DNA of 63,338 nt, filler included, from Vannella sp. (lineage: Eukaryota): the NCBI GenBank assembly GCA_023345925.1. It is 8 parts of 8 records of this genome, joined end to end, with 100 filler letters (N's around TTAATTAATTAA, not from the genome) between each part and the next. Parts side by side here need not be neighbours in the genome. Positions count along the whole stretch, not along the records: positions 45,250 to 52,764 come from JAJQQN010001372.1; 7 more parts are not named here. One strand, 5' to 3'. How positions within the stretch are numbered: the first letter of the stretch is position 1; every line of letters begins with the position of its first letter. Of this stretch, positions 17,861 to 53,251 are shown in pieces. The position numbers and the translations under genes were made by a program. A model generated the notes under the pieces. That model did not search any database. It saw only the letters and a program-made list of their open reading frames with translations, and had not been told where the DNA came from.

Positions 17861-19027
17861 TCAAGTGTCCAAGTTATCAGCGGAAGAGGTTTCCCCTTCG
17901 TCTTCGGGATTCGGATTACTTTGCCAACTCCAAGAAGAAGCTTGATTTGAAGGTGATAAAGAGCTGATGCAACTTTTGGGCGTTGAGAGTGAGTTAGATG
18001 TCGAGTCGTCGTCCATCACAGAGAAGGACCTCACTTTCGGAGGCGCGACAAAGTTATTACGTAAATCAAGTGAAGGAATCGCATCCAAGAAAGCTGGAGA
18101 AATGCAGGAAAGCGGATTGTCGACAACGTTGAGTATCTGAAGCCGGGGAAGATTCAACAAAAAAGGCGGTAAAGCGCACAACAGGTTAGACGAAAAGTCT
18201 AATTCATGAATGGTCTTCATCCCCTCCAAGAAAGCAGGCAAATGAGTGATCAAATTGCGAGAAAAGTTGATTCTCTCGACAACTGACAACATTGTGAGTT
18301 GCTCTGGCAAGACAGAGATCTCACATTGCATTAGATTGAGCTCTTTGAGGTATCTGGGAATCCAAAAAGACTGGAATATGAAGTCAGGGACCTTCCGAAG
18401 GGTCTCTCCGTTGATTGAGATTGTTTCGAGTCCGGGGGAGGCTGGATCGAGCTTAATTTTGAGGCGGATGTCGCCGGTAACCTTATCAGGGTGGTGTATG
18501 TGTGTCATAGATAGGTCACAGATGACACTGTCTTGGATATACGAGTTGCTGATGGGGATCTCCACCATCCCGATGAGCGAGTCTTGGCTCAGCTTGTGAG
18601 CTGCCCAGCATTCCACTTGGAGAAAGTTGATCGTTGTTAGATCCTTCACGTTACTGTACATCATTGTGAGATGTCAACCCGAGTGGAGGCGAAGGAGAGG
18701 CGTACAAAAAGAAGTTTTCGTTCCAAAAGGCCTGTCGCTCTTCATTGATGGAGGTTGTGGCGGTCTTGGCTTTGTCTGTAAGTCCCTTCTGAGAGTTTAT
18801 CTTTCGCCCTTGACTCTCCTTCCGGGAGCGAGCATCAACAGAGTACGGAACAACCAGTCCAAGGAGGATAAACACATCCCGGTCCTTTCCTCCCACCCGA
18901 GCTGACACCACTCCACCCTCCCGTTACCACACCACCCTCCAATCTCCTCACCCAACCTACCACTAACACTCAACAACCCATCTTTCCTCGCACAACGGTT
19001 CTTCACCGTCACAAACGATAACGACAT
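17861..19027 (-). CDS. C2-domain + leucine-rich-repeat protein
   Basis: C2 motifs (AFWNENF, LQVECW, SLIGMVEIPI) followed by LxxLxLxxN repeats; 2 introns. Confidence 0.7.
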
Positions 19028-19736: not shown

Positions 19737-20464
19737 CTATTCAATTCCGGTTTGCCAGGAGAGAGAAGAGAGGGAAGAGAGATGTTCGTCTAGGTACAGT
19801 GAGATGACTCGCTTGTGATTGATCCACTCTACTCGTTCTAAGCGAAAGGCGCTGTAGCAAGACAGCAGAACTTCCTTTTCTTCTGAGTGAAAGCGTGACA
19901 GCTTCTCTGTGATGCTACAAGCATATTGGCAACCAAAAGGAACCTTAATGACCATCGTAGCAGACTTTGCGTAAGCTTTTGAGGGGTCCACACTGGTTGA
20001 CGTGAAGCTGGGAATGAAAAAGCAGTTCAGCTGCTCCATCTGCGCCACTTCTGTGTCACTCAGGTCCACACCACGATAGAGAAGACCGTCATCTAGCAAA
20101 GGCTGCTTGAAAATAGCGCTTCTGAGCTGGGGAATGTACGTGGCATACTGTGACAAGCCGTCAGAGTCAGAGGCGAGGCAAAGGTTGACTTTGGCGTAGT
20201 GCTTCGTGGTGTGATTTGTGTACTCATTGAGGATGCTTATTGGGTCCTTGCAAGGCTCGACTCTATCACAGAAGTGGCGATAGTTCTTCTGCTTGGAATC
20301 CGTGACGAGGAAGCTCACTTCGTCACCTTCTGACACCGCCAACGAGCTCCCGACCAACCCATCTCCTCCCAATAGGTCGATAACATCCCGGTTCATGGAG
20401 ACCTGACAAACATTACCACGCAGCTAACGAGAGGAACGAGGAAACGCACCCGCATCATCATCAT
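19737..20464 (-). CDS. Mono-ADP-ribosyltransferase, R-S-E (ARTC/C3-like) clade
   Basis: Motifs LYRG, FTSTS, EKEVLL; probable short first exon MMMMR followed by a GT-AG intron. Confidence 0.85.
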
Positions 20465-37841: not shown

Positions 37842-40800
37842 ATGAGCAAGTTCTTTGGAGGCTCTGGGCAGGTCTATGGCACAGTATACCACGCTGGCTA
37901 TGAGGCAACATCACTGGATGAAGCAACGTTGGCAGGGGTGAGCGTTCTGAACGTCTGGCAGAAGTAAAGGCTGACTTTTGACTTCTACGTAGGTTGCTGA
38001 GCCTGCTAGTCTGTCTCCTTATGTTGAAACCTATTCTACCGACCACTTACAGTCTAAAGGAGAACTAGAGGGGCTAGCAGTAGCAGTTCCTCTTCTTTGT
38101 GCTCCTCCTGAAGCGCCCCCTTTGCCCAACTTGGCGCTTTCTGTCCCTTCTGCTCGCTCCTTCAAGGCTATCCGACCTATCATCGCCCCTCGATCTCCCA
38201 TTCAACAGGGAGGGGTCAAGGTAAGAGAAATTGCCCGTTCCGTGATGGAACGGAAGACACTCCTCGATCAAGCCTCTGCTCCCACCTCAGAACTGGCCCC
38301 TATCTTCTTTGCATTCACTCCTTTGCCCTGGCCAATGACTGCAAGTGGGGGTAGCACTGAAAGTCTCTTCTTACCGGCAGAGTCCGTTCCATCACAGTTA
38401 GTTTGCTCTCCATCCAGCTTTCCAGCGGGCTTTTCTCCACCACAAAACCTACCTAGTTGTAGTTTAACATACTCTCAATCGTCAGGAACTCCTGACCGAA
38501 GCGAAGGCTTCGAGAACTCCAAATCAATCACTAATCGGGAACTATCTTTCTCAGCTTCCCCAGCTTCCCCAGCTAACCCATCTTCCTATTTGGATGAGGA
38601 TGCATTTACTTGGGGTCCTGAAAAAGCCAGCCGTGAGCAGGAGCTGTCCCCATCGTTGGGAGAGTTTGGACACACCATCGGCCATTCAATGGACGAGGGA
38701 CATGGCTTCTCCATGCAACAATCAGATTTCTCAGCATGCCAGAAGGATGCCACTTTAAATTGCCTTCCGGGAGCTGACCAAGCCTCTGCGTACGGAGATG
38801 ATGCAGAATGGACTTCTCATTCCTTCCCAACAGACCCTTCTCTTCAAAGGGGTTACTCAACAGATGCAGAAGGTGCATTTCTTTTTCATGTCCAACCTTT
38901 ATCGCTATTATCGGAGGGAGTGCCTGAGAGTGTTCTTCAAGCCAACGCTTTTGAGAATGTTGAATTCTCTTTTGGAGAGTCCCCCGTTTCCAACAAAAAC
39001 TGTCCTTATGCGGACACAAGTAGTGCAGGAGTATGGAGTATTAATGAACCGTTGGAAGACTCAAAAGAGTACAAAAAACTGGAAGAGCGATTGGAAAAGG
39101 TCCATGACTTGGCCACCCTCAAACAGATGCTCCTTGACGCTGCCAAAGACGGCGATGAAATTTCTCTCCACTCATTAAACAGAGAGCTGAAACAAGAACA
39201 GCCTCTTCTCAATCGGCATCACCGTGACTGGAACAGCGAGTTTCAGACACTTCTTGAAACACCCGATTCCACCTCCAAGTTCCGCCGGCTGGCCCACCTC
39301 GCCCATGACTTTGTCTATGCAGCAACCACCTACGCGAAAATTATTATCTCTGAACAATGTCTGCCGAACAATCAACGAACAATCCCGCCAATCTCCGTGG
39401 GCGGAGTGGCGGGCGGGCAAAAGTACCTTTGCCAAAACATTATTTTCAAGTTTGCATTGGATGTGGAGATCGCCCCGGGGCTCTACATGTATGGTGGTGC
39501 CTATGTGGATCATGAATCTGCTATGAAAGCAGCTGCTCATGAACTGAAAGGACTCTGTCAGTATTATAGTACTTTGACTCCCCAACTTGCGTACCCTCTC
39601 CTTGCCTACATTGACTACAAAGGCTTCCGAGTCATTGCAATATCTGTATTACCCATCGGCAGAGACTCTCTTTGCTATGGATCTTCTGATTCTGGTGTCC
39701 ACGTTGTCGCGAAAGATTCACAATTGAACTCCTTAATGGAGCGGGCTGCATCAGTACTCAATCTCCAGCCTCACGTTGCTGGAACTGTGGCCGGGCAATG
39801 TGCCCGTCTGAGCAGTGCGGGCGATCTTGAAGCCCATTACGGGACTGACGGCCGATTCTACATCTTAGACTTTGCGAGAGCCTTTCCTCCGGAGTCTCCT
39901 CCCATCCTCAGCTCCGCTCGGCAGCCCAGAGCGGTCTACTACCGACTTCTAAGGCCGGAATTAGTTCGTAGCAACCAAACACCTCTTAGTCCCGATGCTT
40001 TCACCTCTTGGAGTCTTTTAGACCCCCAATTTAGGGAACACAACGGAGCAGTATTTCGGTGTACTTTAAGGCTCCTCAATACGGTTATTCCTGGGTTTGC
40101 AGGCTGCTTAGACGTGGATTGGCAGTCAATGGAAGACAAATTGATTCCCGAAGTCCACCGAGCGGGTATTAACGTGCGGCATCTGGGCCAAATACGATCT
40201 CACTGCGTTGTAGCACCAGCAAGATCTCTACTGTTGGTAGAAATGGTAGTGAGAGTGGTCAAAAATCGATTAAGGGATGAAATGCGGGCAGCCATGCGCC
40301 AGGCTCAAGGACTCTCTCAAGAAGCCTTCAAAGCCAGCGCTATTTCTACCTTCAATCTGGTTTTGGGCAAGGCTAGTCGACCAGCTATCCGCCAATTCTG
40401 GTCAACCATTCACAATCGAGTCACTTCCAAGTTCTTCCACGGAATCACCGGTATTTCCGGTCTCCATCAAAGTGAGACTGCTGAGTCTCTCCAACATCAA
40501 ATGGAAAGTGCGACATGCTTGCGGCGCCTCATGAAGAGACTCTTGGCTCTGTTAGGAGTTCGGATCACCGAGCAAGCAGCCCAGCAACTGGATGACGACC
40601 CCTTTGCGTTTGAATTCGTCGACGCTGATGTTGCTGAGGTCAGCGCTCAACCCCATTTCATGGATATTATAGACTACGCCGAAGCAATGGCTCTTGAGAG
40701 GATGGCACAGGATAAAGCGGCAGAGAGGGAGAAATTGCGTTTGCTTGAACTCAGTGCAAAGAAGTTCGAACGCGCTCTTCACTCGACCCCAGCCAATTAC

Positions 40801-43344
40801 ATGGCAGTCTACAACTGGGGAGAAGTCCTGTTCCAACAAGCCCGACATACAGAACATCTCCCTGCCCGAATATCACTTTTACACGAAGCTGCTGACAAAT
40901 TGAGTTCTGCATTGGCTATCAGTCCAGTCAAATTTGCTCTCCTTCATTTAGGGGAGATCTATCTGACCCTGGCCATGAACGACAAGCCAACTAGTGCCTT
41001 GAATAACTTCATCCTCGCAGCACAGATGTTCTTGCGCGCTGTGCAAGCTGATTCTGCTTTCATTGAACATCTCACAGGCTACTTGGATATGCTATTGAAG
41101 CCCCCTACAAGAGCTTATCAGCTTCGAGGGCTTCTAGAGATGTGCAAACGAATAGCAGTAGCTCTGCCAAATAATGTGGCGATTTTCCGTGCCTGGAGTG
41201 AAGCTATCCTAGATCTAGCACTGAACTTTTCCTCTTTCTCCCAAATACAGCTCACGGATGAAGTCAATAGCTTCGCCCACGCTGCTATTCGTGGTGTACA
41301 AGAGGATGAGGCATGCCTTGCTTTGATTGTGGACGTTATAGATCGAGTGAGCGACTTGGCGTTCCACCATAAGCAACTTTATCTCTTTGTAGCCAGCCTT
41401 TACCCAGCTATTCAACTTGGAACACAAGGGAATACTTCCCATTTGTTTTTGCAGTGGGGTTGGGCCCTTTGGGAGCATGCAAAAACCCTCGATTATCTTC
41501 AATATTCCGGTGCATTGGCCGCAGCAGCCGAAAAGTTCGAAATGGCCGTACAATTTGACGCTGATTGCCTCGATGAGCACCTAAGGAAGGCTGCGGAAGG
41601 GCAAGGAACCTTATTTTCGCAGTGGCTGGACTTACTGGAAGGTGCACCAAACGTTAGAACTCGTTTGTTCTCTTTCCTTCGCACAGATTCGCTCAGACTC
41701 CACTGGTCACTCAGTCTGACCAGCGCTAAAGAGCTGGCTGAGCACGCAGCAGGGGCTCTGACTAGTGTATCTTTTGTTCAAGTGCACCAAGCCAGTGCCA
41801 TTCTTGTGCTCTTGTCTCAGCACTGCCCAAATATCACTTCCATCTCCCTGCAACTTTGTGCTGTGGAGCTTTCCGCTGTCGAGAAGGTTTGCCAGCAACT
41901 CCCAAATCTTGAGTCATTCACTCTAATGGAGTTTCGTGCTACAGCTGACCTTCTTTTACCCCTTTCTACAATGCCCCACATTCACACTATTCGGTTCCAT
42001 GACGTTCGGGTGAAAGAACGAGCCCAATACCTCGCTAGACTCTCTGGGACACTCCAAAACTTGGATTTAAGTTACAGCACCATTACTGACGCTGAGTTCT
42101 CTTCTCTCAAGTGTCTCACTGGACTACGTGAGCTCACTCTTCGCTATTGCAAACACATCCAAAACAGCATTCCTGACTTGGTGCGCCAACTGAAGCATTT
42201 AAAGCACTTGGATGTGTCTGGAGCTTATCGTGATACAGACAGTATTACAGCCGCGGTACTCAAGTCAGGATGCCGTACTCTACGCTACTTGAATGTCTCT
42301 CATTGCAAGAAACTTACAGATAAGGGTCTGACCGATATCGCCGCCATCTTTGGGTGCAATCCGCTTTCCTCCCTTTCTTTCGCTGACTGTTGCCGTATCA
42401 CCGAAGCGGGATTGGCTACCTTGTCTATTGCAGAGGGACTCTCTCAACTGCGTCACTTGGACATGAGCCTCAACAACCACATCCAAGAGAGCAGCATTGC
42501 TGTCCTTTTCCAGCGCCTTGATGCTTCTCGCTTAGAATCCCTGAAGCTTGTGCGCTGTTCTGTCATGAATAGTACGCTCTCTAACCTCACCAGCAGTCAG
42601 AACGGCCCCTTCTCTCTTCGAGAGCTCTCCCTAAAGTCCACAAAAGTGACTGACCTCACTTGGGTGGCCGAGCATTGTCCTAGACTGGAAAAGATCGAAC
42701 TGGGAGAGTGTCCTATCCAAGGGCCCTCTCTCCTAGCCTTGGCCAGACATTGTCCAAACCTGATAGACATTGACTTGACCCGTTGCAACGGGATTACGGA
42801 AGTAGAACTGATAGATTACTTGAAGCTATCTCCCAACTTGGTGCACCTACGACTGAATTACTGTTTACCAGTGGGACTGGACTCTCTCTTGACCATTGCT
42901 GAAGGTTGCCTGGCCCTGGAGACTCTCGAGTTGGAAGACAATCTCCGTATCAATGACGCAACGGTCATGCATTTGCAGAATCTCCCTTCTTTGCGCCGAC
43001 TGAATCTCAGCCGGTGCAACAGGGTCAAGAGCAATTCAATCGTTCGATTGGCTCAGTCGAGCCCTCTTTTGCACCACTTGGATGTGAGTAACACCACTTT
43101 GGTGGACGGAAAGGGCGCTATACAAGTCGCCAAGTATGCGAAACAGCTCCATACTTTCTGTGCTCGCCAGACTCACAATGTCACCCAAGAGACGGTGGAT
43201 TGGATGACGCGTTACCGCCCCAACATCACTTTCGTGGTGGATCGGAGCTCCAGCATGGTCTCAGAACTTCGAGAGCACGTTCAATTCCAATCCAGAGCGC
43301 ATGTTCCTCTCGAGAGTCTTCCATTTAGAAGGAGTAACTGTTGA
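37842..43344 (+). CDS. CLU-domain + TPR + LRR protein
   Basis: CLU motifs (DFVYAATTYAKIIISE, GGVAGGQKY, IDYKGFRVIAISVLPI, GTDGRFYILDFAR, LLRPELV, HRAGINVRHLG), TPR-like helices, a long run of cysteine-containing LRRs; single intron 37938-37992. Confidence 0.85.
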
Positions 43345-45249: not shown

Positions 45250-47064
45250 ACCTTTTCCATGTACTGTTCTTGACACTTGTATGGTAGGAAGGGGAGCGAT
45301 CACAGGATCGAGAACCCGCGCAGCGGCATCAACCTCGTCTAAGGGAGTCTGGAAATTGTGCTTTTTCATGTGACACACGGCTTTCTCTAAGGGCTTCTCG
45401 TCATTGATCCATCCAGTATCAACAGCAGTCATGAAGATGTTGGTTTTCCGGTAATCTTGTGCACTCGTCCGAGTCATCATATTGAGGGCTGCTTTGGCCA
45501 TATTCGTGTGCGGATGCGTGTCCGATTTGTATCGATAGAATTTACCTTCCATCGCACTGACATTGACGATGAACTTTGGAGTCTCCGGGTCGATTTCCAT
45601 CAATGGCTTGAGCTTGGCATTGATGATGGCTGGGGCCATTGCGTTGATGAGCATTACTTCAGCGAGCTCAGGGGTCGACACTTCATCTAGCTTGAGCATC
45701 CAACTATTTTTTTGTCGGAGATCCACTTGTTGCCCATTGACATCAGTTGCTTGGGTGGGGAACAAAGCGGTGCTAAAGTCACTGTCTTCCGGAATCAATT
45801 CCATCTGAGTCATTTCCGATGATGTTACAATCACCGGTGAAGATGTTGAAGGTGGCCTTTGGAGCTCTTGCTCAACCAGTACTGGCCTTCGCTTGACCTC
45901 AGATGACGAAACGGCAGGTGTCACGTGATCCGCAATAATCTCGTCATCATCAGTGACCTCCTCAATAATGGCGAAATTATTGGATGGCAAAATTGTTGCA
46001 GTTTGTTGGCGAAGAGCATCATGGAGGTCATAATTTTGTTGCAGTAATTGGCGGGTGCTGGCGGGGACGTCGGAGGGGGTGGCGGAAAGTCTCTCGTTGT
46101 CGAGCAGATGTTGGAAGAAGGCGGGTGGACGACGGATTGTTTGACAGGCGTTGTTGATGATGACATCCAGGCGAGTAAATCGCTCTCGGAGGAAGGCACA
46201 GAAGCTCTCCAGAGCTGCAACGTTGCGAAAGTCCAGTCCAAAGAGATGAAGGTTCCCAGACCACGTTGCAAAGTCTGATTCTCGTTCAAAGCGTTGCGCA
46301 GCATCGGCTGGGAAGCGCGTTGAACCGATCACTGTGGCTCCGCAACGTAGAAGTTTGAGGGCGCAGCGATAACCAATCTTCACACGCGCTCCTGTCACGA
46401 AGCAAACCTTCCCTGTCATATCCACTGTCTCTGTGCGCTTCCGGTAGTTCAATGAGGCGCACTCAGGGCACAGCTGGTCGTAGTAGAAGTGCAGTTGATG
46501 GTATTTGGCCTTACAGATGTAACAGATGATGCCTTTGTCCACTAGAACTGGGTCCTCACCGGCTTCTGGTCCTTCTTGAGGGTTGAACTCTCCCGCGGGG
46601 AGTTGAAGTTGGTCGCTCCCTGGGCCTAAAAGGAGAGTTGGAGTGTGTTCATGTCCCACTCCATCAAGAACACGGAGTACTTCCTCTTTGCCCTCCTCGT
46701 TGAGCTTCTCGAGGTGTTTCATGCGTTCTGCTCGAAGTTTGGTGGAGTTGATCCGCTTGGTATCTGTCTCATCGGTCTTGGGCTTCTTGCGAGTAGGAGC
46801 GGCAACCTCTTCCAGTTGCTGATCAACGCGAGCTTGAATAAGGGGCGCCAACACCTGGCGGAGCTGGCGTAAGAAGGGATGGGCGATCTGAGGATGATCC
46901 ACCGCGTGTTGTACCACACGAAGGCACGTTCCCAGCTCAGTGGAAGAGAACGGAAGCGATGCATCTTCCGTAGCAGATGAAGGCGATCCCTGTCCCACAC
47001 TGGAGGCGGCTTGGTCCAGCTCCTCGCGGAGGCGTTTCCTCTTCCGCTCCCTCAGCTTGCCCAT
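45250..47064 (-). CDS. SDR oxidoreductase with CxxC..CxxC zinc-binding insert, 3' end at contig edge
   Basis: CYICK..LCPEC, VTGARVKIGY, INNACQT, VNVSAMEG, HTNMAKAALNM. Confidence 0.85.
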
Positions 47065-47348
47065 GGACCCAAAATCAAATGAATTCCCTTTTTGCTTGCT
47101 CTCTCAACTTCCCTTTGCGATGATGGACTCTATTTTGCGGTTTGGCGAGGGAATGGAGAATCCAGGAGGGCTGGGATGGACTGGGTCTCTGATCAATAGA
47201 GAACGGCGGGCTTATGACCTGTTGGGTTCAGGTGGTTACTTTGATGGGAGTAACTGGAGACCAGTTCAGTTGGTGCTTTGCAAGCCAACGCCACGAAAGA
47301 ACGCAGTTTGGTGAAGAGCGGGCAAGTGAATCCTTTCGAATGAGAGAA

Positions 47349-48059
47349 CTAACGGAAAGGACTTGGTAGCAGTTGGAATGGAAGGTGTTTTGGCTGAGGA
47401 AAGGTCCTGTCGTAATGGACCTTTCCTTGTAAGCTGGCCACGAACTCCTGGAAATCACGCTCCTCCGCATCCTCTTCTTTTGTTGGTGCTGGAGAGTGGA
47501 TTGGATCTTCTGGAAGGTTCATGGCGGCTGATGAAAGGTTGCGCAGAGCAGAGGCTCCTCGGAACGTTTCAAGATAGTCAAAGGAAGGTTCTTTTTCTTT
47601 TGTTGATGATTGTTTGAAGATACCCTTTGAGATGCTTGGTTTTTGCACGGATAGGACTGTGCTCATGCGGGAGGGGGGCAATTTCTCTCGCAGGTTCTTA
47701 ACTCTGGCATTGAACGCGTTTGTCTCATTCTTTGACACGAGTGACTTGAAAGGAGCGTTAGGTGAGGCAAGTAGAAGCTTTCTTTTCTGCCTCAGATTGG
47801 CAATTTCGCGAGAGAGAGACGGATCTCTTGGCAGAAGCTCCTCGTAGGCTTCAATCATTGTGTCCAAAGATTTGACTTTCCGATGAGGCCATCGTTCCAC
47901 GCCATTCCTTCGACAGATCTTCTTTAAGACCGTAGCACATATACCCAGAGATACCGCAGCTTCATCGATAGGAAGGTTGTACAATGAAGAGACTTCCTGC
48001 ATCGAGATCACTTCCTCCTGGGCTGAATGGTTGGGACCCCCGATCAGGGTGGCGGGCAT
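47349..48059 (-). CDS. RWP-RK domain transcription factor
   Basis: YNLPIDEAAVSLGICATVLKKICRRNGVERWPHRKVKSL. Confidence 0.92.
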   Translation of the reverse strand: MPATLIGGPNHSAQEEVISMQEVSSLYNLPIDEAAVSLGICATVLKKICRRNGVERWPHRKVKSLDTMIEAYEELLPRDPSLSREIANLRQKRKLLLASPNAPFKSLVSKNETNAFNARVKNLREKLPPSRMSTVLSVQKPSISKGIFKQSSTKEKEPSFDYLETFRGASALRNLSSAAMNLPEDPIHSPAPTKEEDAEERDFQEFVASLQGKVHYDRTFPQPKHLPFQLLPSPFR

Positions 48060-48531
48060 GTTGAGGAAATGAGTGAATGAAGTTGAACGAAGGGTTGATT
48101 TCCAAGCAATTCCGGGAATCCATCAAGAATCAGAAAAAAACAGGAATCCATCAGCATTGGGCCTTTGTCGTCTTGTGTCTCATCTCCACCATCAGGCAGG
48201 CCTTGAATGCCCGCGCATCATGGAAGAGTGGCTCGACTGATTGGATATGGAAGCTCTCACCACACGCGGAACCCGTGTATACTGGACTCATAACCCGTTA
48301 AACCAATAGGGTTGGTGGCCACGTGATCTACAGATCTTTACATGGTGTGGTGAGGTTCCCATATCCAACACAACTGTCACATGCAATGTCTGCTGGACCA
48401 ACTTCCTCCATGGGAGTCTCCTTGGTCTCATACTGATTTATTCTGATGAGTGAACAAGGTAAAACCAACAGGGCATTGAGTTGAGCCGTGCTTGAAAGGC
48501 TCAGGCTGAGGAGATTTAAAGAAATGAATCA

Positions 48532-50133
48532 TTATTGGATGTAGAAGGCAACGGGCTCCTTGAGTTTTTTCCTCTCATTCCACATGACACGCTGCATATC
48601 TGGATCCTTCGCAAGACGAGCGAAAGCAGACATTGATCGTACTGAAGGAGCGGAAATGTATCCGGAATGGAGGGTTCCTCGCTTTCCTCCCGAAACCGAA
48701 GAAGAAGAAGAAGAACAGTCTTCTTGTTGGCGCATATGGCTAGTTGGGATCTCGAAATTGAAAAGGAACTCGCTCAATTCCACCCACGCTTCGTTAACTT
48801 GCTGTTTGGCTGCTGGAGAGTAGGTGACGATCCGATCTGGAACAAAAAGGTTTCCTGTTCTTTCGTAGTTGACCACCAACGCTTGCATTAGCTCCCACAA
48901 GATCATCCTATGAGGACTTTCCAAAAGGCTTCGCTCCAAAGCTGCAACAATAGGCTGCATTTGAATCTCGACAATGTCTTGAACAGTGTTCCCACTTAGA
49001 AGGAGCTTCACTGCGTGCTCTAAGGTAGCTACTGAGCCTCCCACTTGAGAGATAAGCAGAGTAGCATCTTTCTCACTGAGTGCGAGGTCGTTCATGTCAA
49101 GAAGCGCCAAAAGGCGCCTGTGGATGGCATCTTGAGATCTCTCTCCAAAAGAGACTTTTCTCACGTCGGGATCAGTCCTAGCGTCCATGTAAGGCTCCAA
49201 CCTAGCTAACAGAGATGGATCATTGGATTGGATGAGAACTTGGCACCAATCCCTCTCCAGTGACATCTCCCGAAGCCACTGAAGGAAGCGCCGCATCTCT
49301 GCTTGCTCTTGTACCTTCTCGATAGGATCAGAGATCGCATCAATGTAGTCTAATAGAGACTCAAAGTTGCTGATCCATACAAACTGCCTCGCACCTGGTC
49401 CTCTTTGCTCGATAAGCGTCGTCATCTCTTCCAAGACATCTACGAACTCTCCTCCTGCTGGGTTCGCTCGATTGCTAGTTACTTGAGCGAGACTTTCTGA
49501 TAGAAGTCTTTGTAGGCCTCCTTTGTGCACTTTCTCATCAGCGCCAGGTGCGCTGGCAGCAAAAAGGGGCGATCGATAGGAATTCGGTTGGATCGAGAAC
49601 TTGATTGCGCTGCTCTCGGCCAAGTAGCTGTTGACAAGGTTATGGCTGTTGAACTCTTTGGGGCCCATGGCTATCGCAAACGTGCCAGCATGCGAGAAGA
49701 CGGCCTCAAGCTCCATCCCTTCATTTAAGAGGGACGGAAATCTGTTGTTGATGACCAGAGGGACAACTGGGGAGGCAATTAACATCTCATCTTCTCCTTT
49801 TGACTCTTCTAGATGCTCAGACTGCTCTTTGGGTGCCACAACAAGGAGGGAGACAGGGTTGGGTTTGCCCAGAGCGGTGTACACCAAAGCCGCAAGTCCT
49901 CCACATATCAAACCAATCCCAATAGGAAACAGCAGCTTCTGCGGAGGGGCTGTGCTGGATCGAGGTGGTAGAGGCGGAGGAATAGGAGAGCTGGAAGAAG
50001 GCAATGTGGGGGGAGGAGAGTAACCCATCCTCCCTTCCACATTTGGCACAGTCCGACGAGCCCTTGTTGTCTCAACGAACGCCATGTTTCTTCCCCTGGC
50101 TGCCACATGGGAGAAGGTCCTCACCCGAAGCAT
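48532..50133 (-). CDS. Predicted mitochondrial membrane protein with a degenerate P-loop ATPase-like domain
   Basis: Presequence-like MLRVRTFSHVAAR, one TM helix, degenerate Walker A (AMGPKEFNS) and Walker B (VWISNFE); intronless. Confidence 0.45.
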   Translation of the reverse strand: MLRVRTFSHVAARGRNMAFVETTRARRTVPNVEGRMGYSPPPTLPSSSSPIPPPLPPRSSTAPPQKLLFPIGIGLICGGLAALVYTALGKPNPVSLLVVAPKEQSEHLEESKGEDEMLIASPVVPLVINNRFPSLLNEGMELEAVFSHAGTFAIAMGPKEFNSHNLVNSYLAESSAIKFSIQPNSYRSPLFAASAPGADEKVHKGGLQRLLSESLAQVTSNRANPAGGEFVDVLEEMTTLIEQRGPGARQFVWISNFESLLDYIDAISDPIEKVQEQAEMRRFLQWLREMSLERDWCQVLIQSNDPSLLARLEPYMDARTDPDVRKVSFGERSQDAIHRRLLALLDMNDLALSEKDATLLISQVGGSVATLEHAVKLLLSGNTVQDIVEIQMQPIVAALERSLLESPHRMILWELMQALVVNYERTGNLFVPDRIVTYSPAAKQQVNEAWVELSEFLFNFEIPTSHMRQQEDCSSSSSSVSGGKRGTLHSGYISAPSVRSMSAFARLAKDPDMQRVMWNERKKLKEPVAFYIQ

Positions 50134-50293
50134 GACCCAAACAAATGAATTTTCCCGCCATTTTCCAAATGTGCTGACCTTCTTTGGAAGTGAATGGGAG
50201 GATTCATCTGGCACTTGAAAAGACGAAAATCATGTCTAAAGCGCTCCTTCTTGAAACCAGCTCGAAAGGACATTCTTTGGTGACCCTTCATTG

Positions 50294-52748
50294 ATGGCCC
50301 AAGTCGAGTGGGACGGCGGTACCGGCTGGAAGTTGCCAGTGCTGCAGGCTATCTTGGATGAGGACCCCGAGAAGCTCAACCAGGTGAGCTCCTTTCCACA
50401 GTCCAGGAGGAAATCAAACCAAAGCGAAACGGCTCTTTTCTAGTATGTGAGTGAACGGAAGCACTTTTGGAGAGCTTCTCACTGTAAACACTTTGTTACT
50501 AGCATGTTAGTGTCTTTTCTACTTGTCAGACGGGGCTCAGTTGCAGGGAGGATGACATCTGAACGTTCGGACCTTCCTTTAGCAAGTAAGTGAAAGGAAA
50601 CCTTCTTTGAGCTCACAGCCATTACAGGAAGTAAGCGAACCCGTTCTCCTTGATAAGACAATGCATGGTCTCATCAAAAGGGCCTCTCGTTCAGTTTGTA
50701 AGGGAATCTCCAATCTTTTGGTGCGATGCTGACTCTTTTCTCGCAGAAGGTAAGCAGGAGGACTTATGATGCCTGATACAGTCTAGCATACTAACAAGGA
50801 CAACATTGGCCGTTAGTTTGGAGTGCGTTGCTGGGGAAGAAGACACTCCTGCAGGAGAACTGACAGTTATTTAGAGTGTAAGTTGCTCGCTACATTCAGG
50901 AAGAGGTGGAAGGCGGACATTCTTCTCCAAACCCTATATTTGGGAGAGCCCTCACCAGACTGCTTTAGAGTGTGAGTGGCCGATCGCGGAAAAGGATGAA
51001 GCATCACTTACTGAAGACGCAATGAAGTCTGTGAGTAGTTTCGCTGTTTGAAGAGGATTTAATCGTTGCGGTCAAAGAGAGTAAGAGGTCCAAGCTGTGG
51101 GATCATCAGAGGCCCTCATCTAATCTGAATTCAGCATGTAGGTTTTGCCCATCCGGAAACGTGCACGATACCAACCAAGTTCATTTACAGTGGGTAAGTC
51201 ATTCTCTAAAGTGAAGAAGATGCTCAACTCTCGAAGACATTCCTTGGATTGGCAGCTGCCACAGGGAACGCTGAATTCGTTAGATATTTGCTTTCTCGAC
51301 GAACCATCAACATTCATGAGGGAGTCCGTTCTTTTTTGGAGAAGGAATACACTCTGACTTGGGTCATTCTAATTTTTAGTGTGTGAGTTATGTTGCAACA
51401 ACTTTGGGTGAATGCAATACTTACCGGCCGCTTTTAGCAAGTAAGAAACAAATCCTGAGAGATTCCGTGGAGCACAGGCCTTACCAGGGGACCATTTAGG
51501 CTGTAAGTGATTATTAGAGTCATCTGGAAAGGAGAGGAATTAACTGGATCGCAAAGGTTGTAAGAAGGGATCCTCTCGAGATGAATCAGGCCTCAACGTT
51601 TGGGATTGATTAGCTTGTAAGTATTTGATTTCAGCAAGACCCCTCTGACCATGCCCTTCAGAGGGTGGGTAAATCATTTGGTGAACTTTGGGATCTTACT
51701 CACGAATGGCGTGGTAATCAGGATGTGAGTTCTTAAATTTTAAAAAGACTTAGCAGGGGCTAACAGCCACAATCACTGTAGGTGGTAAGTGAATGGAGGG
51801 GAGGCGCGAGTGCCAAGATATCAGAGCAAAGTAATCTCACTTCATTGGACTTGCAGGGAGTAAGTGGTTCTAAAGATGCAATGTGAAAATGTGCCTAATC
51901 AGCATCTCCCAGTCCGTAAGTTTCGAGGAAGGTGGATTTGAAGCTCTGCTGATTTATTCCTTCTGTAGGAGGTAAGGGGCACCTTATAACTTTGAATCAC
52001 TCCGCCAACGTCCTCAATTAGGCTGTACGTAAACCAAATACCAACCGAATGATCTGAATGGAATGGGAAATAGCTGGCATTTGACTTGAGCGCGAACCTC
52101 CAGATCAGGACGATGCTCAAAAATGCGGGTGGTAGGCCTCGTTTCTACCCACCCCGTGACTATGATTATTGCTTCAAGATCAAGATCGTTGGGGACAGCG
52201 GAACTGGCAAATCCTGTTTGATTCGTCGATTTGTGGATGATTACTTCAATTGGGAATATTTCCAAATTGATCAGGGCTTTCTCAGTAAGACTATCGTAGT
52301 TGGAGGTAAGTCCATTAAGCTTCAGATTTGGGATCACAAAGAAGAGCGCTTTCGCCTCGGCCCAAGCCCCTACAGCGGGGCACATGCAGTCATCCTTTTG
52401 TACGATGTTACAGATCCTGCTTCCTTTGCGAATCTCAAGCAGTGGCTCTTTGATGTTGAGAGAAACGCCAGTGAGAATGTGACCAAGCTGATCGTTGGAA
52501 ACAAGTGCGACCTGACCATTAAAAAGGTCATCCACTTGGACACTGCAAAGCAATTCGCTGCAGAGCGTGAGATTCCTTTCTTTGAAATCTCTGCCAGGAC
52601 TTCAGTCTATGTCGAGGAAGCATTCACTTTTCTGGTCACCAAGATTCTTGAGAGACTGACTGTACCAAACCAAATCAATCAGATTGATAGCCCTTTCAGG
52701 CTTCAAGTTGAGGGCAAGAAGCGCAAGAGCAAGTGCAAGTTACAGTAG
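50294..52748 (+). CDS. Ankyrin-repeat + Rab1-like GTPase-domain protein encoded by 28 exons, 25 of them microexons (309 aa if all are included)
   Basis: Exon 50294-50383 MAQVEWDGGTGWKLPVLQAILDEDPEKLNQ; microexons YHQEFK(FG)SSSRHW; exon 51237-51323 TFLGLAAATGNAEFVRYLLSRRTINIHEG (ankyrin); microexons CQAVLRDVGSEA; exon 52074-52748 LAFDLSANLQIRTML + Rab domain + CKLQ; all 27 introns GT-AG and phase 0. Confidence 0.88.
50384..51236 (+). other. Microexon array 1 (13 microexons, 14 introns)
   Basis: AG|exon|GT at 50444 TAT, 50503 CAT, 50583 CAA, 50628 GAA, 50695 TTT, 50747 AAG, 50817 TTTGGA, 50875 AGT, 50969 AGT, 51028 TCT, 51078 AGA, 51135 CAT, 51191 TGG. Confidence 0.88.
51324..52073 (+). other. 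Microexon array 2 (12 single-codon exons, 13 introns)
   Basis: AG|exon|GT at 51380 TGT, 51438 CAA, 51500 GCT, 51557 GTT, 51614 CTT, 51662 AGG, 51722 GAT, 51782 GTG, 51857 GGA, 51913 TCC, 51969 GAG, 52022 GCT. Confidence 0.9.
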
Positions 52749-53251
52749 ACGAGGGTTGATCCCANNNNNNNNNNNNNNNNNNNNNNNNNNNNNNNNNNNN
52801 NNNNNNNNTTAATTAATTAANNNNNNNNNNNNNNNNNNNNNNNNNNNNNNNNNNNNNNNNNNNNCTCGTGACTTCTCTCTAACTCCTCCTCAAGTCTCTC
52901 TGACGTGTTGAATATCCACTGCAGTGACCTGAAGACGGTGGATGGGGGCAATGCAACACGTATCTGGACTGTAACAAAGAGCTTGTATTCCATCAGGGAC
53001 GAATCCCATTTCAGAAGAAACGTACTGCTCTCGAATGGGAGAACGATGAGAGAATTCTCTGCCGCGCTAAACTGCGAATCCAGAAGGACGCCTTCCTTTA
53101 TGACAACACCTGGGTGTCCAACTGTCTTCTCAGGTTGCCAGGTTCCACGGAGAAAAGTCCACAAATCGCAATGAGAGTGAAAGAGTTCAAAATTTTCCTG
53201 GAATTACAAAAACTTACTCACGGATAGTTTACTCTTTCTTTGCCCCCAGGG

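Follow-up and report, generated by a model that had tools for sequence, protein, structure and literature searches.

A predicted gene with two arrays of one-codon exons, an ankyrin repeat and a Rab1-derived domain in a probable amoebozoan

The locus and its predicted gene

The window (the whole stretch of DNA that was analysed, 63,338 nucleotides) is made up of short contigs joined by spacers, and the genes found in it are eukaryotic and intron-poor. The locus described here lies on the piece 45250-52764, where a gene of 28 likely exons and 27 introns, with 310 codons uninterrupted by a stop, was predicted from the sequence. Single codons account for 24 of the 28 likely exons. The predicted product consists of an ankyrin repeat followed by a Rab1-derived domain without the G2 and G3 motifs, and by eye its N-terminus (310-residue model) contains no hydrophobic stretch. 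The parts of the gene, with the evidence for each, are as follows.

50294..50383, plus strand: exon 1, which starts with the ATG, has 30 codons and may encode N-terminal cap helices (gene model; related copies)
50384..51236, plus strand: array 1, with 14 phase-0 introns of 42-91 nt, 13 microexons and 14 codons (gene model; identical pieces in DNA runs)
51237..51323, plus strand: constant exon of 29 codons, a single ankyrin helix-turn-helix (PDB matches; a related copy)
51324..52073, plus strand: array 2, with 13 phase-0 introns and 12 one-codon exons (gene model; contig of run X2)
52074..52748, plus strand: last exon, with a short putative cap helix, the Rab1-derived domain and a Cys-x-x-Gln end (Pfam, PDB and tree)

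In the predicted register array 2 takes the place of the five-residue hairpin that follows the ankyrin repeat. The two arrays together span 1.7 kb, and the microexons contribute 78 of the 930 coding bases (8%). All 27 introns are in phase 0, run from GT to AG and have a G at position +5; their lengths are 42-91 nt (median 54), and most of them contain a branch motif that resembles CTRAY or reads CTCAC. Keeping any one intron alone introduces an in-frame stop or a frameshift in 24 of the 27 cases. From these signals, it is very probable that this is a spliced gene whose introns are removed by the ordinary spliceosome.

Several other gene structures were considered and rejected. An upstream ATG at 50232 opens a frame that runs into a stop, and an acceptor at 51257 would break the ankyrin frame, while a related copy backs the acceptor ending at 51236. 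Nested introns and recursive splicing were also set aside, as none of the array-1 exons starts with GT.

The coatomer beta gene of the window was used to place the host. Its product is 81-82% identical to two proteins and 52-60% identical to the best named matches, and the seven EukProt rows chosen from the top of its match list all come from amoebozoan genera. The host is a probable amoebozoan, assuming that the contigs of the window share one organism.

Other features were observed in the window. An intron-free long open reading frame (48532-50229, minus strand) is arranged head to head with the gene at a distance of about 200 bases from the gene's ATG; it has no Pfam match and its exact sequence is absent from the protein collection. 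An RWP-RK transcription-factor domain is found on the same contig at 47349-48122 (minus strand). Elsewhere, the frame 19737-20423 (minus strand) matches an ADP-ribosyltransferase exoenzyme family at 1e-7 and adjoins a leucine-rich repeat (LRR) frame at 17861-18673 (minus strand), the two possibly being one gene, and 37993-43344 (plus strand) is an intron-free frame encoding 1783 residues, with matches to CLU, TPR-like and LRR families.

The one-codon exons and their support in DNA

Array 1 is composed of twelve 3-nt exons and one 6-nt exon, which translate as YHQEFKFGSSSRHW. Its microexons, all from the gene model, are listed below.

50444..50446 (plus strand): microexon 1, TAT (Tyr)
50503..50505 (plus strand): microexon 2, CAT (His)
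50583..50585 (plus strand): microexon 3, CAA (Gln)
50628..50630 (plus strand): microexon 4, GAA (Glu), outside the run pieces among those listed
50695..50697 (plus strand): microexon 5, TTT (Phe)
50747..50749 (plus strand): microexon 6, AAG (Lys)
50817..50822 (plus strand): microexon 7, the sole 6-nt exon (Phe-Gly), whose downstream donor is GTGCGT
50875..50877 (plus strand): microexon 8, AGT (Ser)
50969..50971 (plus strand): microexon 9, AGT (Ser)
51028..51030 (plus strand): microexon 10, TCT (Ser), with an AAG acceptor
51078..51080 (plus strand): microexon 11, AGA (Arg), with an AAG acceptor
51135..51137 (plus strand): microexon 12, CAT (His)
51191..51193 (plus strand): microexon 13, TGG (Trp), in the position that precedes the initial Thr of the ankyrin repeat

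A preliminary description of this DNA had proposed an array of thirteen microexons, and both the gene model and an excess of the underlying motif bear this out. The plus strand of the window holds 40 sites in which an acceptor and a donor are separated by three bases, and 24 of these fall within 50444-52022. The motif HAG-NNN-GTRAG occurs 10 times in array 1, compared with a mean of 0.16 and a maximum of 3 in 5000 dinucleotide shuffles, and over both arrays the 3-nt spacer was observed 20 times, the remainder of the window predicting 0.24. On the plus strand of the arrays there are no spacers of 1, 2 or 4-10 nt, and among spacers of 1-12 nt the enrichment is limited to 3 nt. Additionally, of the eleven GTRAG donors in array 1, ten follow an AG at a distance of exactly three bases, the remaining one being the donor that ends exon 1.

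The two arrays match in the quality of their donors and acceptors (the donor reads GTRAGT in 6 of 13 cases in array 1 and 7 of 12 in array 2), and their splice sites are similar in strength to those of ordinary introns. The five introns of the coatomer beta gene are 46-112 nt long and carry the same signals as the array introns, with phases of 2, 2, 0, 0 and 2.

The residues encoded by array 1 were earlier noted to be rich in Tyr, Phe, Trp, His, Arg and Ser, and this holds: 10 of the 14 residues belong to this set, compared with 24% of 6513 window codons (p 3e-4, for a set chosen post hoc). Tyr, Phe, Trp and His alone make up 6 of the 14 residues of array 1, compared with 9% of window codons (p 9e-4, again for a set chosen post hoc), and none of the 12 in array 2. 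The last base of the 25 microexons in 50444-52024 is T in 13, A in 6, G in 5 and C in 1; third positions elsewhere are 26% T and 29% C, which gives a T excess at p ~0.005 and a C deficit at p ~0.002.

The introns show no likeness to one another, as had been stated before, with the best of 351 pairwise alignments scoring 19 and shuffled maxima of 18-28. Because the introns are unalike, array 1 is not the product of a recent tandem duplication, and the earlier exclusion of such an origin agrees with all 27 introns. It is likely that the arrays arose by tandem duplication at an older date.

The runs that contain the stretch are six in number, from four studies, and all are DNA runs; X1-X3 are from one study and may be its source. 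Among the pieces listed, those identical to the window span 12 of the 13 array-1 microexons, and 6 of the 13 are present at depth 2 in runs X4 and X5, which belong to two further studies. A contig of run X2 (984 nt) equals 51007-51990 with zero differences. The single difference within array 1 is at the intron site 50776, in one contig at a depth of 3.4. No differences in microexon codons were found in the DNA runs compared, at thin cover, and at that cover there is no sign of population-level diversification of the microexons.

Since runs from other studies carry identical pieces, an assembly artefact can be dismissed. Scans of sequence collections do turn up tandem and CRISPR-like repeats that mimic the one-codon pattern, which would favour a chance pattern, a tandem repeat or an artefact, but here the codons differ and the introns are unalike, and we consider an explanation of this kind to have next to no chance of being correct.

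The same runs also contain related copies, which were seen through the constant exons plus 30 flanking letters and which match only the two constant exons, with ~11-14 differences per 70-80 bases. There are at least three related copies of exon 1, either paralogues or copies from related organisms. An ATG in register with 50294 is present in two different copies, and three copies extend 5-7 bases into intron 1 before each diverges in its own way. One copy reads CAG at the acceptor (AAG at 51234-36 in the window) and stays in the ankyrin frame. At intron 15 two copies match the window for 9 and 13 bases, respectively, and a third retains the GT; one related piece in X1 has no donor after the ankyrin exon (51322) and reaches a stop five codons on. 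The constant exons are kept while the introns have diverged, and therefore the exon borders are supported. As a separate observation, a contig of X1 (753 nt) carries the ankyrin exon with 9 differences together with 28 bases of intron 4 (50589-50616) at 80% likeness. This joining of 50616 to 51264 may be due to chance or to a similar array in a related copy.

The ankyrin part and the Rab1-derived domain

A search of the PDB with the exon 51237-51323 returned 192 sequences at E<=10, and the best 60 of these all carry names of ankyrin-repeat or designed repeat proteins. The match of the exon to Pfam Ank (E 0.017) is below the cut-off, and it scores +16.7 bits on a custom repeat profile built from 109 repeats of one ankyrin-rich bacterial genome, a narrow reference set. 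Exon 1 had been described as encoding ankyrin-like helices, a label that our searches do not back: it matched 0 PDB chains at E<=10 and 0 Pfam families, it scored -24 to -33 bits on the 109-repeat profile, whether alone or joined to array 1 (the joined form being scored there only), and in the ESM Atlas it gave only leads below 0.9. Ankyrin caps are often divergent, and by eye exon 1 fits a cap in which Asp-x-Glu-x-Leu occupies the turn and the second helix.

The length arithmetic of the preliminary description, in which full inclusion of array 1 nearly restores a 33-residue repeat, stands in part. With all microexons included, the stretch that begins with the Leu-Pro in exon 1 and reaches the Thr of the ankyrin exon counts 17 + 14 = 31 residues, where the stop of exon 1 at repeat position 17 is a register set by eye. 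The figure of 31 out of 33 residues is thus correct if exon 1 is a repeat; what does not stand is the recognition of exon 1 as ankyrin. The corresponding length with all of array 2 included is 41 residues, where five residues in its place would make 34. In the reference repeats, spacings of up to 50 residues (n=74) range from 29 to 49 with a mode of 33; 5 of the 74 are 32 or less and 6 are 40 or more. If exon 1 is a repeat, and under this unproven register, there is no surplus length in array 1, and array 2 has a surplus of ~6-8 residues.

It is also conceivable that array 1 varies as much as array 2 and encodes a free, aromatic-rich loop outside the ankyrin repeat in which any subset of microexons is tolerated. 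As exon 1 has no ankyrin profile match, the 33-residue limit may not apply to it; the aromatic excess is confined to array 1, and the splice sites are alike in both arrays. These points are set against the fit of exon 1 to an N-cap register by eye and against the position of the Trp, which full inclusion places directly before the opening Thr. A Trp in this position is a common arrangement in ankyrin repeats. We regard a free loop as improbable.

The last exon matches Pfam Ras at 2e-41, and its best PDB match is Rab1A (1e-52); its predicted fold is poor (pLDDT 40.6). In a tree, six relatives (P0001-P0004, P0315 and P0345) form a clade with the last-exon domain at 100/100, and this clade, in which two of the six relatives are long branches and some members are named Rab-1A in databases, sits with Rab1 at 98/97. 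The P-loop (G1, GxxxxGKS) is intact in the gene, and its Lys is altered in two of the six relatives. In the alignment the Thr of switch I (G2) is absent from the last-exon domain; the G3 motif DxxGQ retains the Asp and has lost the Gly and the Gln. G4 (NKCD) and G5 (SAR) are both kept. Pairwise identity within the clade is 16% in switch I, 21% in G3/switch II and 78% in G4, compared with 92-99% likeness across the same stretches among 14 Rab1 proteins. The C-terminus is Cys-x-x-Gln in all seven clade members and two Cys in all 14 Rab1 rows. By alignment and tree, the predicted domain is of Rab1 ancestry with loss of G2 and G3. Regulated GTP hydrolysis by this predicted domain is unlikely because the switch I Thr and the Gly and Gln of G3 are lost.

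All six Rab relatives were called from a last exon only, which would be expected if arrays hide the upstream exons from gene callers. In two of them a Gln and a Lys, respectively, precede the cap helix directly, which at the protein level fits the codon of an acceptor.

Searches for spliced relatives returned none, either with the Rab exon among proteins of 123-392 residues, with a profile (the best 150 matches being mostly ordinary or multi-domain Rabs), or with phmmer using the joined N-terminus against 388 stored proteins. A search with exon 1 in longer proteins gave 0 of 6 candidates. In a metagenome scan with at least 48 loci, none of those listed has an array or a family member; the viral collection yielded one generic Rab, and 0 of 55 matches in the prokaryote collection were family members. 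A scan for the array pattern found 13 viral loci with 0 genuine arrays, and in the prokaryote collection, among at least 121 loci, all but two were repeats or chance. The false matches were tandem or CRISPR-like repeats with one or few triplets in near-identical units. A further false match (L006, 2966-3420), an open reading frame of a giant-virus bin with Arg/Lys/Ser-rich repeats, resembles a DNA-packing basic protein. In the literature searched, which lay mostly outside subscription journals, one-codon exon arrays in amoebae were not found.

A separate observation from these scans is a set of three loci, L227 (G002:C69), L228 (G002:C114, 596-1839) and L229 (G002:C171, 16-1212), that hold 29, 38 and 37 single varied codons, respectively, between near-identical GTAAG...TTTAG units of ~30 nt; L159 and L177 were grouped with this observation. 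The three loci are 18-20% GC and come from a bin titled Mycoplasma sp., where they are probably contamination from a eukaryote with short introns. Their codons often specify Trp, Tyr, Asp, Glu or Arg, two of the arrays share the final five residues Cys-Pro-His-Lys-Gly, and one includes a TGA triplet. Their sequences suggest a young stage in the growth of one-codon arrays.

The failure to find a spliced relative, together with the last-exon calls of all database relatives, would fit a non-productive locus, where everything upstream is a relic that is decaying or goes unspliced and expression is confined to the Rab exon, starting at a Met of its own. Prokaryote gene callers would yield just such last-exon products, however, and the donors and acceptors are intact in 27 of 27 introns with no stop among the microexons. 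The start codon and the exon borders are also kept in related copies despite the diverged introns. A relic of this kind is very improbable.

Proposed mechanism and comparison with known systems

Our preferred reading, to which we give a probability of about 0.55 from the sequence, is that the gene encodes splicing-variable loops in a protein that combines ankyrin with a degenerate Rab1 domain. Arrays 1 and 2 would be one-codon, frame-keeping likely exons that vary the ankyrin binding loops. The spliceosome would remove the short introns one by one, and since all microexons are 3 or 6 nt and all introns are in phase 0, any subset of microexons could be skipped in frame, allowing array 1 to yield 4092 distinct peptides and array 2 to yield 3964, with up to ~16 million combinations of loops from both. 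The uniform phase 0 is no proof of skipping, because unit duplication with full inclusion also keeps the frame.

Array 1 would complete the first helix pair and form the first hairpin, and hairpins are the binding face of ankyrin proteins. The forms that fold would likely include most of array 1, because the 31 residues at full inclusion leave no spare length; 58 of the 4092 peptides have at least 12 residues. Array 2, with its ~6-8 spare residues, would be the likelier site of combinatorial skipping. Over time, intron-plus-codon units may have been duplicated, lost or exchanged between gene copies. Inclusion probably varies in at least one of the arrays, and for array 1 the balance tips slightly toward microexons that are mostly included. 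That array 1 may be largely constitutive, as the preliminary description suggested, is plausible but unproven, since exon 1 matched no ankyrin profile and the arrays do not differ in splice sites.

Alternatively, both arrays may be constitutive, with all 25 microexons always included, the layout a relic of unit duplication and variation arising at the DNA level only. Consistent with this, array 1 is short even when fully included, donor strength is that of ordinary introns, the 41 residues from a full array 2 would be tolerable given the reference spacings of 40 or more (6 of 74), and young arrays with near-identical introns exist. Against it, 27 introns per 930 coding bases would be costly if useless (the coatomer beta gene has 5 per ~2840), and the Tuber precedent is reported as extensively alternatively spliced in the available parts of the sources (PMC4986451, PMC13449251, PMC9815663). 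We consider constitutive inclusion unlikely, though the strongest of the alternatives. If the gene is spliced as predicted, 3-nt exons can be defined 12-13 times consecutively between introns of 42-91 nt, and the presence within 1.7 kb of one array short of residues and another with residues to spare makes the locus suitable for asking whether structure limits inclusion.

For the splicing-variable protein, the likely role would be non-self recognition at a membrane, by way of the Cys-x-x-Gln end; a pathogen-sensing role can be put forward only tentatively. Legionella, whose natural hosts are amoebae, directs proteins at Rab1 as a main target, according to the accessible part of one source (PMC12960579), and we hypothesize that the variable Rab domain acts as bait. 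It is a bold and rather unlikely proposal that the gene represents an amoebal family of membrane immune sensors, in which a splicing-built library of ankyrin hairpins is paired with a dead Rab1 bait for the proteins of intracellular bacteria. If true, one-codon arrays would, together with the truffle genes, be a recurrent, convergent means of somatic diversification of recognition proteins in microbial eukaryotes.

Three known systems and the Rab1 proteins themselves can be compared with this gene. In brown algae, the candidate immune receptors of the ROCO and NB-ARC-TPR types are described, in the part of the source available, as having one repeat per exon (PMC13449251). As far as that description goes, exon structure varies a repeat recognition surface in both cases, with whole repeats being shuffled there and single residues here. 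ROCO proteins also combine repeats with a small-GTPase-like domain. Relative to Rab1/Ypt1, the gene shares G1, G4 and G5 and its clade is adjacent to Rab1, but the switch I Thr and DxxGQ are gone, the switches are variable, the end is Cys-x-x-Gln in place of a double Cys, and a predicted ankyrin part lies ahead of the domain.

The MEGs of Schistosoma mansoni have symmetrical tiny exons whose skipping is frame-neutral, micro-exons make up to 75% of their coding sequence and their products are mostly secreted, as described in the accessible portion of PMC4015677. Symmetrical micro-exons are shared (27 of 27 introns in phase 0, microexons of 3 or 6 nt), whereas here the microexons are 78 of 930 bases (8%) and lie within a repeat protein that is predicted to be folded and to end in Cys-x-x-Gln.

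The closest layout is that of the NACHT-ankyrin (nank) genes of Tuber melanosporum, which are reported to contain dozens of alternatively spliced 3-bp mini-exons (Iotti et al. 2012, Fungal Biol 116:261; as related in the available parts of PMC4986451, PMC13449251 and PMC9815663). The same three sources, within those parts, describe the nank family as expanded and fast-changing and propose that the mini-exons diversify its recognition domain. In the literature searched, one-codon exon arrays are published for these truffle genes only. The present gene shares with them, as so described, the tens of 3-bp exons (24 of its 25 microexons are 3 nt) and the ankyrin, which here is one clear repeat, N-terminal in position and with a Pfam score below the cut-off. 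It differs in having no NACHT domain (its sole long exon is of the Ras family, and 310 residues leave no room), in its Rab1-derived partner domain and in its host, a probable amoebozoan rather than a fungus. Alternative splicing is described at the transcript level for nank, as far as those accounts go, and is predicted from DNA here. The gene would thus bring both a further supergroup and a further partner domain under the one-codon design. It also points to a family of amoebal recognition proteins that has gone unrecognised and that gene callers cut down to a lone Rab. Its layout is like that of Tuber nank, yet it is neither a nank member nor a MEG; what is new is the host, probably amoebozoan, and the fusion to a Rab1 offshoot with strongly varying switches.
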